A program made the position numbers and the translations under genes. DNA of 59,352 nucleotides from a phage, in the sequence record PZ564402.1. The stretch is one strand, 5' to 3'. This document shows, piece after piece, positions 3,127 to 45,582 of the stretch. A model generated the notes under the pieces. It searched no databases, was not told the DNA's origin, and worked only from the letters and a program-made list of their open reading frames with translations. Every line of letters begins with the position of its first letter. Positions within the stretch are counted from its first letter, which is position 1.

Positions 3127-3363
3127 TGGTGTGCGGCTGTATATGGCTATCTATTCCCCTTTCTATGGTATCCCCTGCTATATGGTGTGACGGGGCGTTA
3201 TTGTATGCCCTTATTTCGACCGCTACGGGGGGCAGACGGGGCGATCGTGGTGTAAGGTATGCCTACCTATTACGATCTATCTTGCGTGGCGTGGCGGGCG
3301 GCTGAGGAAGAATTACGGTCACGATTTCAAAAAGGTACTTACCCGCCCGTCGGTCAGCCCGGG

Positions 3364-3375
3364 GGTGCGCAGAGC
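3364..3375 (+). other. candidate cohesive-end site (cos) 12-mer GGTGCGCAGAGC
   Basis: Exact match to the 12-nt 5' cohesive end I recall being reported for Salmonella phage Chi; lies in a noncoding interval beside direct repeats. Confidence 0.45.
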
Positions 3376-3605
3376 CGCTTTCTCGGAAAATGGGCCGGAT
3401 CTGCCATAGCCCCGCTTTGCGAAATCAATAACTTAGCCGAAAAATCGAATTTCTCCCGTAGGGAGGCACCGAAACAGGGTGCTGCCCGGGGTGCGGGCGG
3501 AACGGCGCTTTAGCCCCTCAACCGATTGATAGTATTACGGTTATACCCGGTGGGCTGGTGCTGACCAAGTCCACGGCAGCAGGCATCAGACACAAGATAC
3601 AACTC

Positions 3606-3868
3606 GGTTACAGGAAATTCGACTTGTAACCTATCCGTAAATCCTTAATTCTACTACCTTTTATCAACTATTAGTTACAAGTTACAAGAAATAAGGGTAA
3701 ATAGGATAAGAAATAGGGATAAAACGTTGTATATTGTAGATCACATCGTCACACATTATATGTATGTATAGGGTTAGCGGCACTTGTAACCTGTACTCAA
3801 AACATGGTCAAGGCCAGTCGTGACGCGGCTTTCAGGGGTTACAAGACGATCATGCGTTTTTGTAACCT
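3606..3868. promoter_or_regulatory. AT-rich control region with multiple GGTTACAA/TTGTAACC inverted and tandem repeats (operator-like)
   Basis: Inverted pairs 3606-3631 and 3838-3868, tandem GTTACAAGTTACAAG at 3673-3690, further copy at 3784-3791; upstream of HTH gene 3925. Confidence 0.5.
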
Positions 3869-3924
3869 CAACGGTTAACAGCACGTCGAACATACGCGAC
3901 GTGTATCAAACGGGGAAACTAAAA

Positions 3925-4251
3925 ATGGCTAGTGCAGTTGAAAAGTTAAAATGCGGAACGTCAGTGGAACGGGCGTTGAACAAAAGAGCGGCTGATAAAG
4001 TGTGCGACGGGGTTAAAAAGCGTCTCAGAAATGCAATAGTCGCGGAAATCGACGACAAGGGGTACACCAATTCCGAAGTTTGCAGCATGACTTGCGTACC
4101 AAGCAGCCGGGTAAGGGAGTTGAAGGAAAAACAAGGAGACGGATTCCAGCTAGAAACGCTTTTACGCATGGCAATTACGCTTAAATTGGACATTGAAATG
4201 GTCACATTCTGGAATCACGACGTGATCAAAGCGCGCGTAAAAATATCGTGA
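3925..4251 (+). CDS. XRE/Cro-like helix-turn-helix transcriptional regulator (109 aa)
   Basis: HTH-like segment GYTNSEVCSMTCVPSSRVRELKEKQ; GGGGAA RBS; start placed at internal ATG because upstream part of ORF overlaps operator repeats. Confidence 0.55.
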   Translation: MASAVEKLKCGTSVERALNKRAADKVCDGVKKRLRNAIVAEIDDKGYTNSEVCSMTCVPSSRVRELKEKQGDGFQLETLLRMAITLKLDIEMVTFWNHDVIKARVKIS

Positions 4252-41489: not shown

Positions 41490-43619
41490 GTGGCGGATGA
41501 AGACGTAGGTATCAGCGCGGCCAAACTGGTCGGCGAAGCCTTGCAGTGGAATGGCGAGAAGCCCAAACTCACATACCTGTCTAAGTGTGTGGGTGAAGCG
41601 TTAGCCATTTCCGCATTGAACATGGACGCGGCGAAAAACTTCGGGGAGGTTTTGCAGTGGGACGGTAAATTGCCGTCCATCTTCCGCGCGGCCGAATTGG
41701 TCGGCGAAGTGCTGGCGATTCAGAAGATGGAGATCCGCGCATCGTCAATGATTTGCGAAGCGCTGGTCAAAGAGCCGCAATTTATGGCGGCCGAAATGAT
41801 CTGCGAGGCTATCGGTCAGGCGGCCACGGAACGGCCACCGCTTTACGCAGATGCGGTTTATCAGTACGTCACGCAGCACGATGTCGTACCGCCGTTGTCA
41901 GATGTCATTTCGACGGAACGCCTGTACTCGCTGTGGAATTACGCCATTGTCCAGCGGCCGATCGATGCCCCGATTTCCTACAACATCGTGAAGCAGGCGG
42001 TGACGCTGTCCGTTCTGGCGTCGCCTATCGTGACTATTTCGTACGACAAGGTGAAGACCGCGTGGTCGTATGCCGTGGTGTCCGCGACGCTCGGTGACTT
42101 CCCGCTGCCGGATGAAATGTGGTCGAAGATCAGCACGAAACAGGCGTGGAATCTGGTATTGCAGTCGATCGACATCCCGTACGTCCCGACGTCTGGTGTG
42201 TTCGTTCGCCATGAATCGACGCTGGTGGTTCAGGCCCGTCCGCTGCCGATGTACACGACGCCTGCGTCCGTGAAGTCGAACGTAGTTCTGGCCGCGCAGA
42301 AGCGCCCGGTTGAACGACTCCCGCGCTCAAGGACTCGCGTGGCGCAGGCATTATCGCAGGCCGTTACCGCGTTGCCGATCCCGATGCCCCGGTCAAACGT
42401 GTTCGCCGCGCAGACGCTGTCACAGGCGGTCATCCCGGCGGACTTCGTTGACCCGACTGTCGGCGTCGAGCACGCGGCCGCAGTGACGTCGTACGCTGTT
42501 TGCGAGTATCAGGTGTCGCTTCCTATCAGTTACACTCGTGCGAAGTCCCTGACGCCGCTGGTGCTGCAATTTAGCGATAACCAACGAGCCATCCCGCTGT
42601 CCACGATGCGCACCAAACATGTTTCGTCTCAGTTCTTGGTCAAGTCTGACTTGCTCCCGGTGCTGTCTCGGACGCGCGTTAAACAGGTGCGCACGTACGC
42701 GGTGCAGGAGTCGGCCTACACGCCGCCGATTAACCTGCTGGTGTGGTCACGCGCCGATGCCGTTCGTACGTCGGTGGTGCAGCAGGCCACGGACTACCCT
42801 GACCCGGGCATCCCTACAACGTCGGCTATCGTCGGCGCGGCCACGGCGTATCACGTCATGAAAGCGCTGGACTACGAAGACCCGAACGACATGTGGGAAG
42901 CGAGCAAGGTTCAGATGGTGCCGCAGTTCTTAGAGAAGGTGCTGAAAGCCCAACCGCTGCGGCTCCCGATCTCGTACGCACCGTTGGCGCAATTCGTTGA
43001 ACTGGTCACGCGGTATCAGTACATGCCGCCGCCGGGCGAAGTGGCCGAGTCCGGTATCCACGTTCGTCAGGTGATGCAGCCAGTGGCGTTCCGTGCGACC
43101 TATCCTGACCCGACTGTCCCGGCGTCCTTCCTGACTGTCAATCAGGTGCTGGAGCACATCGCGATCCCGGCCGACTATCCGGATGTCCATCTGCCGACGT
43201 CGGACGCGATTGTAAATCAGGTATTAGAACACGTTGCGCAGATTGACGATTTCCCTGATCCCGGTACCATGTTCCGGCCGCTTATTGTCAGCCAGATCAT
43301 CCAGCAGGCGGCACAGGACGCGTCTTACCCGGATTGGAGCACACTGCATAAACCCATCGCGGTGCAGCAGGTGATTCAGCATGTATCAATGACAGCGGAG
43401 TACCCTGACAAGGACATCCCGCAATCATTTGCAGAAGTGTCTCAAGTTTTACAACACTATGCCGATATAGCTAATTACCCAGACAAAGATGCTCCCCAAT
43501 CCACGCTACGAGTCCGTCAGGTACTTGAGCAGGTAATGATGCGCGACAAGTCGATGTACGAAATGCCGCAGCCACCACGGAAACATCGGGTGCAAATCAC
43601 TTGCCGCTTTGTGTACTGA
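41490..43619 (+). CDS. highly repetitive fibre-like protein (GTG start, 709 aa)
   Basis: AAGGGGG RBS; about 25-30 degenerate 22-24-aa repeats (e.g. YPDxxxPxSxxxVxQVLxH); last structural gene before lysis cassette. Confidence 0.6.
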   Translation: MADEDVGISAAKLVGEALQWNGEKPKLTYLSKCVGEALAISALNMDAAKNFGEVLQWDGKLPSIFRAAELVGEVLAIQKMEIRASSMICEALVKEPQFMAAEMICEAIGQAATERPPLYADAVYQYVTQHDVVPPLSDVISTERLYSLWNYAIVQRPIDAPISYNIVKQAVTLSVLASPIVTISYDKVKTAWSYAVVSATLGDFPLPDEMWSKISTKQAWNLVLQSIDIPYVPTSGVFVRHESTLVVQARPLPMYTTPASVKSNVVLAAQKRPVERLPRSRTRVAQALSQAVTALPIPMPRSNVFAAQTLSQAVIPADFVDPTVGVEHAAAVTSYAVCEYQVSLPISYTRAKSLTPLVLQFSDNQRAIPLSTMRTKHVSSQFLVKSDLLPVLSRTRVKQVRTYAVQESAYTPPINLLVWSRADAVRTSVVQQATDYPDPGIPTTSAIVGAATAYHVMKALDYEDPNDMWEASKVQMVPQFLEKVLKAQPLRLPISYAPLAQFVELVTRYQYMPPPGEVAESGIHVRQVMQPVAFRATYPDPTVPASFLTVNQVLEHIAIPADYPDVHLPTSDAIVNQVLEHVAQIDDFPDPGTMFRPLIVSQIIQQAAQDASYPDWSTLHKPIAVQQVIQHVSMTAEYPDKDIPQSFAEVSQVLQHYADIANYPDKDAPQSTLRVRQVLEQVMMRDKSMYEMPQPPRKHRVQITCRFVY

Positions 43620-43640
43620 TTAATGACGGGTTAATATTCT

Positions 43641-43668
43641 TAGCGGGCTTGTCCCGCTAATTTTTTAT
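43641..43668 (+). terminator. rho-independent terminator (TAGCGGG-CTTGT-CCCGCTA + T6)
   Basis: Perfect 7-bp stem and T-tract after fibre-like gene. Confidence 0.65.
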
Positions 43669-43683
43669 GTGAGGAAGCACCCA

Positions 43684-44022
43684 ATGAGCGAAATGGAACG
43701 GGAACGGCCGGGGGATAACTCCGGCGGCATCAAGTTAGACCTGTCTGTCAATCTCCCCACGATTCTGACGATGGCTTCGATGCTGGTGGCGGCGGTACTG
43801 TACGTCAACAACCGCTTCGCCGACCTGTCAAATCAGAACACGCAGACGGACACCCGGCTGACCAACGTCGAGAAACGTCAGGACTCCACTGACGCGGCGT
43901 TCACGGTTCTCCGGGCCGAAACCGTCTCGCAAAACTCCGCCCTTCGTTCAGACCTTCGCGCCGACATGCGCGACCTGAAACAAAGCGTGGATGCCCTATC
44001 TTCCCAAATGATGAGGAAATAA
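43684..44022 (+). CDS. putative holin (single TMD)
   Basis: GAGGAAG RBS; one hydrophobic helix LPTILTMASMLVAAVLYV; immediately upstream of endolysin. Confidence 0.5.
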   Translation: MSEMERERPGDNSGGIKLDLSVNLPTILTMASMLVAAVLYVNNRFADLSNQNTQTDTRLTNVEKRQDSTDAAFTVLRAETVSQNSALRSDLRADMRDLKQSVDALSSQMMRK

Positions 44023-44025
44023 CCG

Positions 44026-44739
44026 ATGGCTAAACAGAAGCCGCGTGGGATTCGCAATAACAACCCCGGCAACATCGAATGGGGGTCGCCGTGGCAAGGG
44101 CTGATCCCGCGTAGCGAGGCGACGGACAGCCGCTTCGCACAGTTCAAAGACCCGGCATCTGGCATCCGCGCCATTGCCGTCACCCTGACCACCTACTACG
44201 ACAAGCGCAAAGCGAACGACGGCAGCAAAATCGACTCGGTGCGCGAAGTGATCGAGCGGTGGGCACCTGCCGTCGAGAACAACGTATCCGCCTACGCTAA
44301 ACAGGTGGCCGCCGTTCTGGCCGTTGACCCGAATAGCGAAACGCTGAACCTCCACGACTACGACACCATGCGCGGTCTGGTGGAAGGCATCATCCGCCAC
44401 GAAAACGGGAACCCGGAAGCGTTCGGCCTGACGCCGTACAGCAACGCGAATACGTGGTACTCGGACGAAGTGATCGAGGAAGGTCTGCGCCGGGCGGGTA
44501 TCGTTAAGGCGGCCAAGCCTGTTAACCGTACCACCGTGGCCGCGACAAGCGTGGCAGGACTCGGCGCGGCGCAACTGGTTGACATGGTACAGCCCGTCAA
44601 GGCTGCGATGGACAGCGCCCACGGCGATATTTCTTCCGGTGATTGGGTACGCATCGCATTCGGCGCGGCCACAATCGCGATTGGCCTGTACATGGGATGG
44701 GTCGCGTACCGGAAGCATCGGGCCGGGGCGGCTGCATGA
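44026..44739 (+). CDS. endolysin with C-terminal transmembrane anchor
   Basis: N-terminal IRNNNPGNIEW motif typical of peptidoglycan hydrolases; C-terminal hydrophobic helix VRIAFGAATIAIGLYMGWVAY; resembles the unusual Chi-like (Enc34-type) endolysin architecture as I recall it. Confidence 0.6.
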   Translation: MAKQKPRGIRNNNPGNIEWGSPWQGLIPRSEATDSRFAQFKDPASGIRAIAVTLTTYYDKRKANDGSKIDSVREVIERWAPAVENNVSAYAKQVAAVLAVDPNSETLNLHDYDTMRGLVEGIIRHENGNPEAFGLTPYSNANTWYSDEVIEEGLRRAGIVKAAKPVNRTTVAATSVAGLGAAQLVDMVQPVKAAMDSAHGDISSGDWVRIAFGAATIAIGLYMGWVAYRKHRAGAAA

Positions 44740-44990
44740 CAGGGCTATTCGCCCGGATCAAGACGGGCGTCCTTGCGGCGCTCGTTTTCGTTGTAGCCCT
44801 CTTCGGCGTCTGGCGGGCAGGACGCGCGAAGGGCAAACAGGATCAGATTAATAACCAGAACTACGACACGTTGCGGGAACAGGCAAACGCGGATAAAAAT
44901 GTGGCCGAGGTGCATAATGAAATCAATAAACTCCCTGCTGGTGGCGCTAACGATCTGCTTCGCCGTAAGTGGATGCGTCGAAAGGATTAA
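44736..44990 (+). CDS. i-spanin (Rz-like), N-terminal TMD
   Basis: ATGA overlap with endolysin stop; TMD GVLAALVFVVALFGVW then charged periplasmic domain. Confidence 0.5.
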   Translation: MTGLFARIKTGVLAALVFVVALFGVWRAGRAKGKQDQINNQNYDTLREQANADKNVAEVHNEINKLPAGGANDLLRRKWMRRKD

Positions 44991-45120
44991 CCCTGCGCCG
45001 TCTTTCTGTTCTGTCGCGCGCGCCATCTACATCGGCGAGGAAGACGTGCTGACAGATGAAACCGCACGGCAGATCGCCACCCACGATGAAATCGGCGAAC
45101 GGCTATGCGGCTGGAAATAG
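44917..45120 (+). CDS. o-spanin (Rz1-like) lipoprotein, overlapping i-spanin in a different frame
   Basis: Lipoprotein signal MKSINSLLVALTICFAVSGC with lipobox-like AVSGC; starts inside the i-spanin gene. Confidence 0.55.
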   Translation: MKSINSLLVALTICFAVSGCVERINPAPSFCSVARAIYIGEEDVLTDETARQIATHDEIGERLCGWK

Positions 45121-45582
45121 TTAAATGGTCGGGTGGGTAATAACCACCGTACGTTCACCCTCGATTGTCTGGTGGTACCGCAGCGAGGACACCAGATGAT
45201 CGAGGCTATTGAAGACCGGGATATTCAGCCTCTTCGCCTCTTCCACCTCCGCGCGGGTACCTGAACTACGCATCGCATCTTCACCAATCAGCAGAACAGC
45301 GTCACAGCGGCGCATCAATTCCATCGTGCATTCCAGCCAGTATTCGTCCGGGGTCTCGCCTTCGGTCTTGTGCTCGAAGTTGGCCGTGTTCAGGTGCGGC
45401 GTGACCGGGAACATCTTATGGACGTAGAGTTGATCGACAACCGACACGGCCGTCTCTTCGGCTTTCAGGATGTTGACCGTCGTCGGAACGGTGCAGCCCG
45501 AACCGATGATGTACGGGCGGTACGGCCCGGCCAGATAGATCATGACGGGCTTGGCCGCCGGGTTACACATATTCACGTTCAT
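45121..45582 (-). CDS. nucleoside 2-deoxyribosyltransferase-superfamily protein (Ndt/Rcl-like)
   Basis: N-terminal IYLAGPY motif characteristic of this fold; last gene of leftward early operon. Confidence 0.45.
   Translation of the reverse strand: MNVNMCNPAAKPVMIYLAGPYRPYIIGSGCTVPTTVNILKAEETAVSVVDQLYVHKMFPVTPHLNTANFEHKTEGETPDEYWLECTMELMRRCDAVLLIGEDAMRSSGTRAEVEEAKRLNIPVFNSLDHLVSSLRYHQTIEGERTVVITHPTI

Follow-up and report, generated by a model that had tools for sequence, protein, structure and literature searches.

Near-identical versions of the lysis genes examined here have been published for phage BSPM4, with its endolysin M4Lys (PMC7143992), for phage Enc34 as ORF38-41 (PMC8943055), for phage Siskin (PMC6498227) and, as far as the spanins are concerned, as the 'Chi' family of SpaninDB (PMC6139136). 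Full-length M4Lys lyses E. coli alone, without the upstream protein ORF_37, and purified M4LysdeltaTMD, which lacks the transmembrane domain (TMD), degrades peptidoglycan. Removal of the last 13 residues (M4Lys 1-224) gave an inactive protein and abolished lysis, the TMD expressed alone was bacteriostatic and stopped growth, and NaN3 delayed lysis by M4Lys but did not prevent it. ORF_37 alone had a minimal effect on the growth of E. coli; together with the soluble, active M4LysdeltaTMD it caused no lysis, and when co-expressed with full-length M4Lys it made lysis slightly slower (all PMC7143992). For Enc34, the full-length endolysin ORF39 was toxic and its truncated form was not, peptidoglycan-degrading activity was also reported for ORF39deltaC, and Glu131 was described as the catalytic residue, with Tyr95 and Trp79 positioning the substrate (PMC8943055). 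The topology of the endolysin has been predicted in two ways: N-in/C-in by the TMHMM run of the Siskin authors (PMC6498227), and a single TMD with the N-terminus outside by Phobius and Phyre2 in the M4Lys study (PMC7143992). The published authors acknowledge as an open question how an enzyme that lacks an N-terminal signal and carries a C-terminal membrane module reaches the periplasm, and a search for mechanistic papers on Chivirus lysis after 2022 found none in the collection of papers covered.

The stretch of DNA analysed in this study (the window, 59,352 nucleotides, sequence record PZ564402.1) belongs to a Chi-like Salmonella siphophage and shows 97-98% nucleotide identity to phage Chi, with the same gene order. 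Its lysis cassette consists of four ORFs on the plus strand, which in gene order matched the PHROG profiles phrog_7686, phrog_873, phrog_1026 and phrog_1275 with E values of 1e-57, 9e-83, 1e-22 and 4e-24, and the same 1.6 kb is present in 104 phage records at 90-99% identity. The ORF list, the profile matches and these records bear out the coordinates given for the four genes in the first-pass annotation, whose main reading, a C-terminally anchored endolysin followed by an overlapped i-spanin/o-spanin pair, also matches the literature on the near-identical genes. The cassette is the standard late type of a Chi-like (Chivirus) Salmonella phage and has been published already; it is ordinary for such phages and fully described, and its presence in the window adds nothing new. 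What is new here is the spread of the anchored architecture, the charge-favoured N-in/C-in hairpin and the finding that the gp37 family, to which the first gene of the cassette belongs, precedes unrelated endolysins. In Enc34, which belongs to the genus Enchivirus and infects Hafnia, the same four genes form the cassette, and a convergent nucleoside 2-deoxyribosyltransferase gene comes next, as in the window. The cassette of the window is preceded by a 709-aa tail-fibre-like gene (41490-43619), and between the two lies a terminator-like GC hairpin with a T-run (43640..43669, plus strand; 8-bp stem with 5 GC pairs, TTTTTT), which is considered a putative terminator only, the number of terminator-like sites in the region being not above that in shuffled sequence.

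The endolysin (237 aa, 44026..44739) is the ortholog of M4Lys and of Enc34 ORF39. It is identical to M4Lys at 235/237 positions, including all of the last 108 residues (130-237), and M4Lys differs only by two conservative substitutions, S30N and T106M, both located in the catalytic domain. Because of this identity, the same neighbouring genes in BSPM4 and the 111/112 identity of the upstream protein to ORF_37, the enzymology and truncation results obtained with M4Lys transfer directly to the endolysin of the window. Residues 1-160 (44026..44505) constitute an all-helical, PHA02564-type enzymatically active domain, which was modelled by AF2 with pLDDT >90 throughout and superposed by Foldseek on chain 7q47_B with a TM score of 0.97, an rmsd of 1.2 A and 71% identity. 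Sequence comparison to the crystallised Enc34 endolysin (PDB 7q47) gave 71-75% identity and a phmmer E value of 1.5e-74 over residues 5-162. W79, Y90 and E126 are invariant in an alignment of 58 homologues and correspond to Trp79, Tyr95 and Glu131 of Enc34, in which the numbering is shifted by 5 because five residues are inserted behind the WAP motif. As the aligned counterpart of Glu131, Glu126 (44401-44403) is the catalytic residue. The first-pass annotation had described an IRNNNPGNI catalytic N-terminus; the N-terminal domain is catalytic and the motif (residues 9-17, 44050-44076) is a conserved signature, but the catalytic residue lies outside it.

At the C-terminus, a single transmembrane helix had been proposed. 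Hydropathy analysis confirmed a transmembrane segment there and found neither a signal nor a transmembrane segment at the N-terminus: the first ~160 residues contain no hydrophobic window, and N-terminal Kyte-Doolittle values are negative in the homologues. However, two hydrophobic C-terminal helices are present and not one. The proximal helix (residues ~168-188, 44527..44589; hydropathy and alignment) is rich in Ala, Gly, Ser and Thr, is preceded by a basic linker and contains an invariant Gln183; with a Kyte-Doolittle value of ~1.0-1.3 it is weakly hydrophobic and may fail to span the membrane. The distal helix (residues ~208-228, Kyte-Doolittle 1.57), located by hydropathy and by the M4Lys truncation, is followed by the basic tail YRKHRAGAAA (together 44647..44736), and S204, G205 and G213 are invariant among the 58 aligned homologues. 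Over 86 homologues, K+R versus D+E came to 4.4 vs 0.3 in the linker before the proximal helix, 0.9 vs 2.4 in the inter-helix loop and 2.1 vs 0.3 in the C-terminal tail. Judged from this charge distribution, the anchor is probably a two-helix N-in/C-in hairpin and not one helix. The AF2 model has pLDDT values of 38-65 for residues 167-237, at which neither the packing of the hairpin nor its docking on the catalytic domain can be read. Residues 155-237 matched no holin family in Pfam and PHROG hmmscan searches, only the endolysin's own family, and hhalign comparison of the module to phrog_1322-like two-TMD proteins gave a probability of 0.3%. Enc34 ORF39 shares the same catalytic Glu, Tyr and Trp and the same two-helix C-terminal module. 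The first-pass annotation had described the C-terminal anchor as uncommon, which is correct but not new: the first report of such an anchor dates from 2019, and studies followed in 2020-2022. The published loss of lysis on removal of the last 13 residues of M4Lys indicates that the segment is not dispensable (PMC7143992).

The first gene of the cassette (43684..44022) encodes a 112-aa protein of the gp37 type, annotated as 'lysis protein B' or putative holin, and is preceded by the Shine-Dalgarno sequence GAGGA 7 nt 5' of the ATG. Hydropathy revealed a single TMD at residues ~20-42 (nt 43741-43809), followed by a charged, coiled-coil-like C-terminal part. The protein begins with MSEM, which can be compared with the double-start motif described in Enc34 ORF38 (PMC8943055). 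An exhaustive profile search gave 73 representatives of the family, compared to 8 clusters from a word-index search, and D19, N23, P25, T26, R88, D94 and K99 were found to be invariant. Charges on the two sides of the TMD (50 family members; K+R 2.9 vs D+E 3.5 on the N side and 1.8 vs 2.5 on the C side) are ambiguous with respect to the published N-out/C-in prediction. The gene had been called a holin in the first-pass annotation. Its position beside the endolysin gene, the small size of the product, the presence of at least one TMD and the charged C-terminus fit this name, but the label is only a positional guess: ORF_37 is non-toxic and does not release a soluble endolysin, and no similarity to any holin family was detected, with nothing above threshold in Pfam and only phrog_7686, labelled 'Rz-like spanin', in PHROG. 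That label, also used by RefSeq, would make the protein a second i-spanin, and this was rejected as the primary reading, the gene always being situated 5' of the endolysin and a full i-/o-spanin pair being already present in each cassette. It had been prompted by the combination of an N-terminal TMD with a coiled coil and by the L..EWSK ending of distant members of the family.

Of 120 endolysin homologues, 117 retain the two helices as well as the basic tail, among them proteins of SSU5-like phage-plasmids, P22-like phages and Pasteurella prophages. The order gp37-like gene, anchored endolysin, Chi-type spanins was found in 8 divergent viral loci, with no further small membrane protein in the cassette. 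In the P22-like, SSU5-like and Pasteurella elements the anchored endolysin has no gp37-like neighbour; a P22-like contig, for example, carries it with the spanins and without an adjacent gp37-like gene. Conversely, a gp37-like gene is the conserved first lysis-cassette gene in 12 divergent viral loci, and members of the family occur beside endolysins of three types: the anchored one, a soluble lambda-R-like endolysin (L010, L018, L019 and L021) and an SLT endolysin (L028). Cassettes in which it accompanies a non-anchored endolysin contain a separate two-TMD protein (phrog_1322 or similar). The experiments needed are narrowed by how widely the architecture is spread, by the topology deduced from charge and by the occurrence of the gp37 family with three endolysin types.

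Membrane-tethered muralytic enzymes that lyse without a holin on over-expression are also known among the SAR endolysins (P1 Lyz, phage 21 R21), which work with pinholins and carry a weakly hydrophobic helix rich in Gly, Ala, Ser and Thr, like the proximal helix here. Their anchor is N-terminal and their catalytic fold unrelated, whereas the present endolysin has no signal-anchor for Sec export and lysis by M4Lys is azide-insensitive. LysAP of Acidovorax phage AP1 resembles it in that a cationic tail follows a C-terminal TMD; this TMD is required both for lysis and for localisation, and LysAP by itself lyses E. coli (PMC8879335). In contrast, its catalytic domain is a GH24 lysozyme, one TMD is reported and its holin HolAP arrests growth; the C-terminal TMD of LysAP looks like an independent acquisition. 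For the C-terminal module alone, an analogy can be drawn to class II holins and the pinholin S21 68, with two helices, a predicted N-in/C-in topology, a basic C-tail, a weakly hydrophobic first helix rich in small residues, a more hydrophobic second helix and similar composition values. Unlike S21 68, the module has no sequence similarity to any holin family, and any formation of holes by it is hypothetical.

The explanation considered best, with a probability of about 0.55, is that of a hairpin-tethered endolysin which lyses the cell with its own membrane module, with gp37 as a tuner of timing and with the spanins acting afterwards. Homology and the published experiments show that the N-terminal all-helical domain cuts peptidoglycan via Glu126. 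The two-helix module probably enters the inner membrane as a hairpin whose two ends are cytoplasmic; its basic linker and tail would then be on the inner side and its acidic loop on the outer side. Because both ends would lie in the cytoplasm, the endolysin would build up in tethered form on the cytoplasmic face of the inner membrane. Above a threshold, the module may compromise the bilayer in a holin-like manner, and the attached catalytic domain would then reach the murein; for the 112-aa protein, tuning of the timing appears more likely than a function as canonical large-hole holin. The weak hydrophobicity of the proximal helix, the one-TMD N-out prediction of the M4Lys authors and the low pLDDT of the module (38-65) speak against this explanation, which also leaves the physical passage of the tethered cytoplasmic domain through the lesion unexplained. 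Moreover, holin-independent lysis was observed only when expression from a plasmid was strong, for which the Enc34 authors caution of an over-expression effect (PMC8943055), and azide insensitivity leaves YidC or other insertion routes possible. A more specific and more tentative proposal is that the endolysin is a natural holin-endolysin fusion, the hairpin permeabilising the membrane and the 112-aa protein being an antiholin-like regulator of timing. This would fit M4Lys lysing alone and ORF_37 being harmless and slightly delaying, and also the extra two-TMD protein beside non-anchored endolysins and the anchored endolysins with no gp37-like neighbour. Within the fusion, the first helix of the hairpin is pictured as SAR-like and the second as forming the hole; with the basic tail behind them, the layout would be that of class II holins. 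A built-in holin of this kind would represent a further phage lysis route beside holin/endolysin and pinholin/SAR-endolysin, and would be useful for engineering self-lysing strains.

Two other models seem unlikely, to a similar degree. In a SAR-like model, the catalytic domain could be exported to the periplasm, where only the distal helix would keep it, still inactive, at the inner membrane (N-out/C-in); the 112-aa protein would be a pinholin-type holin that depolarises the membrane and so releases or activates the enzyme. The Enc34 authors speculate on exactly such a model (PMC8943055), the Phobius and Phyre2 predictions of the M4Lys authors agree with it (PMC7143992), the basic C-tail fits a C-in orientation, and holin-independent lysis on over-expression resembles that by SAR endolysins. 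The endolysin has, however, no N-terminal signal or hydrophobic segment, there is no known route by which a C-terminal signal exports an N-terminal domain of ~200 residues (PMC8943055), and the linker with its 4.4 Lys/Arg would be placed in the periplasm; in addition, azide did not stop lysis, and ORF_37 is non-toxic, unlike pinholins (PMC7143992). Alternatively, the 112-aa protein could be a conventional holin timing lysis, with the C-terminal module merely concentrating the endolysin at the membrane and endolysin-only lysis being an artefact of over-expression. The first position in the cassette, the small size, the one TMD, the charged C-terminus and the double-start motif (MSEM) of this protein are consistent with such a role, as are the first position of the gp37 family also beside soluble lambda-R-like and SLT endolysins and the strong-promoter caveat of the Enc34 authors (PMC8943055). 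Evidence against it comes from the minimal effect of ORF_37 on growth and its failure to cause lysis with a soluble active catalytic domain (PMC7143992), from the lack of similarity to any holin family, and from the anchored endolysins of P22-like, SSU5-like and Pasteurella elements, which have no gp37-like neighbour; the two-TMD protein found beside non-anchored endolysins (phrog_1322 or similar) could be the real holin there.

The last two genes encode the spanins, and the claim of an o-spanin lipoprotein gene that begins within the i-spanin gene, in a different frame, was borne out by the overlap, the lipobox, the profile matches (phrog_1026 and phrog_1275) and SpaninDB. The i-spanin (84 aa, 44736..44990), whose start overlaps the endolysin stop as ATGA, has an N-terminal TMD (residues ~8-28) with Kyte-Doolittle values of up to 2.19, a short periplasmic helical part and a C-terminal L..KWMR motif, and is near-identical to the iEPS5 i-spanin in SpaninDB. 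The o-spanin gene (67 aa, 44917..45120) starts within it in the +1 frame and ends beyond it, giving an overlap of 74 nt (44917-44990), the same as listed in SpaninDB for Enc34 and iEPS5. Its product carries a signal peptide (residues 1-19) with the lipobox FAVSG↓C, Cys20 (44974-44976) and the signal peptidase II site MKSINSLLVALTICFAVSG↓CV, in which residue +2 is not Asp. The mature protein of 48 aa has conserved Cys31 and Cys64, and 17 columns, including G19 and all three Cys, are invariant among four homologues from very different phages. That some or all of the ORFs, especially the embedded 44917-45120, are chance open frames might be suggested by the 56% G+C content of the region with its many spurious antisense ORFs, and by the annotations of BSPM4 and SPN19, which have an antisense ORF where the i-spanin lies (in BSPM4 the i-spanin is missed). 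This is extremely improbable, as all four proteins match phage family profiles with E <= 1e-22, the overlap architecture is conserved, and the lipobox Cys, the two further Cys and the LTDETAR and GxRLCxW motifs of the o-spanin are kept in otherwise unrelated SSU5-like, Pasteurella and P22-like elements. By this conservation the chance reading is already refuted, and the four ORFs are assigned as genuine genes.

By family membership, the inner-membrane spanin of 84 aa and the mature outer-membrane lipoprotein spanin of 48 aa would disrupt the outer membrane as the last step. With the same lengths, overlap and +1 frame, the pair is assigned by homology to the SpaninDB 'Chi' families, a type listed for Chi, iEPS5, FSL_SP-030/088/124 and Enc34 (Kongari et al. 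2018, PMC6139136). Its architecture is the overlapped two-component one, with P2 LysB/LysC as the prototype. Both proteins are much shorter than lambda Rz/Rz1, which form intermolecular disulfides; since the i-spanin of the window has no Cys, such disulfides are impossible here in the same way.

The lysis cassette consists of four co-directional plus-strand genes, as found from the ORF listing and by direct reading of the sequence. The upstream gene (43684-44022, 112 aa) carries a Shine-Dalgarno sequence, GAGGA, 7 nt before its ATG, and GAGGA also lies 8 nt upstream of the endolysin gene (44026-44739, 237 aa). The ATG of the i-spanin gene (44736-44990, 84 aa) overlaps the endolysin stop codon as ATGA, and the o-spanin gene (44917-45120, 67 aa, GAGG 6 nt upstream) starts within the i-spanin gene. 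No Pfam model was found for any of the four proteins. Since all of them gave strong phage-family matches in PHROGs (in gene order phrog_7686, 1e-57; phrog_873, 9e-83; phrog_1026, 1e-22; phrog_1275, 4e-24), the predicted cassette, placed at the same positions by the first-pass annotation, is considered real and a chance pattern is ruled out. The window belongs to a Chi-like Salmonella siphophage, and the 1.6 kb surrounding the cassette are matched by 104 phage records at 90-99% identity, including phage Chi (JX094499, KM458633), SPN19, YSD1 and 118970_sal1.

Cassettes with a C-terminally anchored endolysin are already known. In the 2019 announcement of phage Siskin, two C-terminal TMDs in N-in/C-in orientation were predicted for the endolysin, and an N-out/C-in topology for the putative holin (PMC6498227). 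The same four-gene cassette was described for phage Enc34 by Cernooka et al. in 2022, with a putative holin carrying a double-start motif, an endolysin whose C-terminal TMD has two helices, and Rz/Rz1-like genes that overlap; the structure of the catalytic domain was solved, and its authors described the export mechanism of the enzyme as unknown (PMC8943055). Acidovorax phage AP1, whose GH24 endolysin bears a C-terminal TMD, is an independent case (PMC8879335).

A PDB sequence search matched the endolysin to the Enc34 catalytic domain 7q47 (E = 1.5e-74). The AlphaFold2 model, built with 58 homologues, had a pLDDT above 90 for residues 1-160 and agreed with 7q47_B at a TM-score of 0.97 and an rmsd of 1.2 A. 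The IRNNNPGNI motif (residues 9-17), by which the first-pass annotation described the catalytic N-terminus, is a conserved signature. The catalytic residue assigned from the Enc34 structure is Glu131, accompanied by Tyr95 and Trp79 (PMC8943055); these correspond here to Glu126, Tyr90 and Trp79, all invariant in the 58-sequence alignment, and the predicted catalytic residue is Glu126, not the N-terminal motif.

Hydropathy analysis of the endolysin revealed no N-terminal hydrophobic segment. The C-terminal transmembrane helix noticed earlier was recovered as a clear segment at residues ~208-228 (Kyte-Doolittle 1.57), with YRKHRAGAAA after it, but it is one of two: residues ~170-188 form another hydrophobic helix, weaker and rich in Ala, Gly and Thr. 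Segment charges were counted across 86 homologues. The linker between catalytic domain and proximal helix had 4.4 K+R against 0.3 D+E, the inter-helix loop 0.9 against 2.4, and the C-terminal tail 2.1 against 0.3. Because of the positive-inside rule, these counts favour a hairpin with both ends in the cytoplasm (N-in/C-in) and hence a cytoplasmic catalytic domain, in agreement with the Siskin and Enc34 predictions. The proximal helix (Gly/Ala/Ser/Thr fraction 0.56, Kyte-Doolittle 0.99) and the more ordinary distal TM helix (0.39 and 1.73) have values near those of TMD1 and TMD2 of pinholin S21. No sequence homology of the C-terminal module to any holin family was found, and AlphaFold2 modelled this module without confidence.

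The function of the protein can be read from M4Lys, the endolysin of Salmonella phage BSPM4, which is identical at 235 of 237 positions, including all of residues 130-237. Bai, Lee and Ryu showed in 2020 that purified TMD-less M4Lys degrades peptidoglycan, while the full-length protein by itself, in the absence of the upstream gene, lyses E. coli in 20-60 min even in the presence of sodium azide (PMC7143992). Removal of the TMD, or of just the last 13 residues, abolished lysis, which answers on an essentially identical protein whether the C-terminal segment is dispensable; the TMD alone was bacteriostatic (PMC7143992). The earlier interpretation of the cassette is essentially supported.

We propose, with a probability of roughly 0.55 for the whole sequence of steps, that the endolysin is made without a signal peptide, would insert as an N-in/C-in hairpin and would accumulate in a tethered state on the cytoplasmic face of the membrane. 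Above a threshold the hairpin may compromise the bilayer, giving the catalytic domain access to the murein; the 112-aa upstream protein would modulate timing, and the spanin pair would then remove the outer membrane. A SAR-like, N-out insertion agrees with the prediction quoted by the M4Lys authors (PMC7143992), but conflicts with the charge counts over the 86 homologues and appears unlikely. We likewise doubt the conventional explanation that the upstream protein is the holin, as the first-pass annotation had named it, and that autonomous lysis by the endolysin is an over-expression artefact. ORF_37, its 99%-identical BSPM4 counterpart, was not toxic and gave no lysis with the soluble M4Lys catalytic domain (PMC7143992), which leaves the holin label unproven. 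Co-expressed with full-length M4Lys, it made lysis slightly slower (PMC7143992).

The family of the upstream protein comprised 8 clusters by word-index search and 73 representatives by exhaustive profile search. D19, N23, P25 and T26, which border the TMD on its N-terminal side, are invariant in the family, as are R88, D94 and K99 within the coiled coil. In viral contigs the family's gene is always the first of the lysis cassette and is partnered by three kinds of endolysin. Eight loci combine it with an anchored Enc34-type endolysin and Chi-type spanins, and no other small membrane protein is present in these cassettes. Contigs L018, L019 and L021 (about 3300-4100) and the short L010 carry a soluble lambda-R-like endolysin (phrog_90). 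Just downstream in the first three lies an 85-96-aa two-TMD protein, assigned to phrog_1322 in the two scanned (L018, L019); the L010 contig is too short for one to be seen. One of the three also has a lambda-type embedded spanin pair. In contig L028 (3406-4373) the family member is followed by a 110-aa two-TMD protein, without a PHROG family match, and then by an endolysin that has an SLT domain and an N-terminal signal. The anchored endolysin also varies in its partners. SSU5-like elements encode upstream of it a 107-aa phrog_5093 protein (698-1021 in locus L003), tail-anchored by a TMD at its C-terminus and with its coiled coil at the N-terminus, the mirror image of the Chi protein; a Pasteurella prophage (2731-2988 in locus L005) has an unrelated 85-aa phrog_3342 protein; and in a P22-like contig (2800-3001 in locus L007) no co-directional gene was found upstream. 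These varied partnerships are compatible with the upstream protein as a conserved accessory or timing factor and with a membrane lesion supplied by the endolysin C-terminal module, and prove neither role.

Among the best 120 of 1,485 endolysin homologue clusters (E <= 1e-3), 117 keep the whole anchored architecture: the proximal helix is weakly hydrophobic and has an invariant Gln, the distal TMD is immediately preceded by an invariant Ser-Gly, and the tail is basic. Anchored homologues are not limited to Chi-like phages. SSU5/pHCM2-like phage-plasmids of ~110 kb from Salmonella, Cronobacter and Klebsiella have them, as do prophages of Pasteurella multocida, a P22-like contig and phages of Xanthomonas, Aeromonas, Proteus and Providencia. 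By itself the catalytic domain is much more widely distributed, being a virion-protein module in 777 phage records (of which just 199 reach a query coverage of 80% or more), including T7-like internal virion proteins, tail injection transglycosylases and head proteins.

Chi-type spanins accompany the anchored endolysin in every context examined. Kongari et al. (2018) placed those of Chi, iEPS5, FSL_SP-030/088/124 and Enc34 in one i-spanin and one o-spanin family of overlapped architecture, and list an 84-aa i-spanin nearly identical to that of the window, the o-spanin being 67 aa long and the overlap 74 nt (PMC6139136). In the window, too, the o-spanin gene starts inside the i-spanin gene, as claimed, in the +1 frame and with 74 nt shared. 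Bases 44968-44978 encode both the i-spanin C-terminal Trp-Met-Arg (TGG ATG CGT) and, in the +1 frame, the o-spanin lipobox Gly-Cys (GGA TGC), both invariant. The W-[MV]-R/G-C coupling recurs in homologues from SSU5-like, Pasteurella and P22-like elements and from distant viral contigs. Because the bases are shared, one motif may owe its conservation to that of the other.

The cassette is preceded by a 709-aa protein (41490-43619), tail-fibre-like and consisting largely of degenerate ~30-residue repeats that close with an aromatic-Pro-Asp motif (...QVLEHV...DYPD / EYPDKD / NYPDKD...); in the distant contig L010 the first lysis gene is likewise preceded by a repeat protein homologous to it. In the window, between the 709-aa gene and the first lysis gene, lies a terminator-like GC-rich hairpin with T6 (43640-43669), its T-run leading straight into the ribosome-binding site of 43684, which suggests that the lysis genes would need read-through or a separate promoter; a sigma-70 scan found no such promoter. 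The o-spanin stop TAG (45118-45120) abuts the stop codon of a convergent gene on the minus strand (45121-45582), annotated in RefSeq as nucleoside 2-deoxyribosyltransferase; 0 bases separate the two, and a terminator would not fit. In Enc34 the two genes converge in the same way but overlap by 4 nt.

Public records annotate the cassette inconsistently and in part wrongly. BSPM4 and SPN19 in GenBank carry an antisense ORF (44745-45026, minus strand, 93 aa in the window) but no i-spanin, the i-spanin is called 'endolysin like protein' in JX094499, and RefSeq and PHROGs label the first cassette gene 'Rz-like spanin'. A 100% identical endolysin is found in OR848973.1 (2,930 bp, 'Listeria phage LM 4-14-1'), and two 'Staphylococcus' phage records match the segment 43600-45200 at high identity. 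Mislabelling or contamination probably accounts for these entries, and not the existence of Gram-positive phages with spanins.
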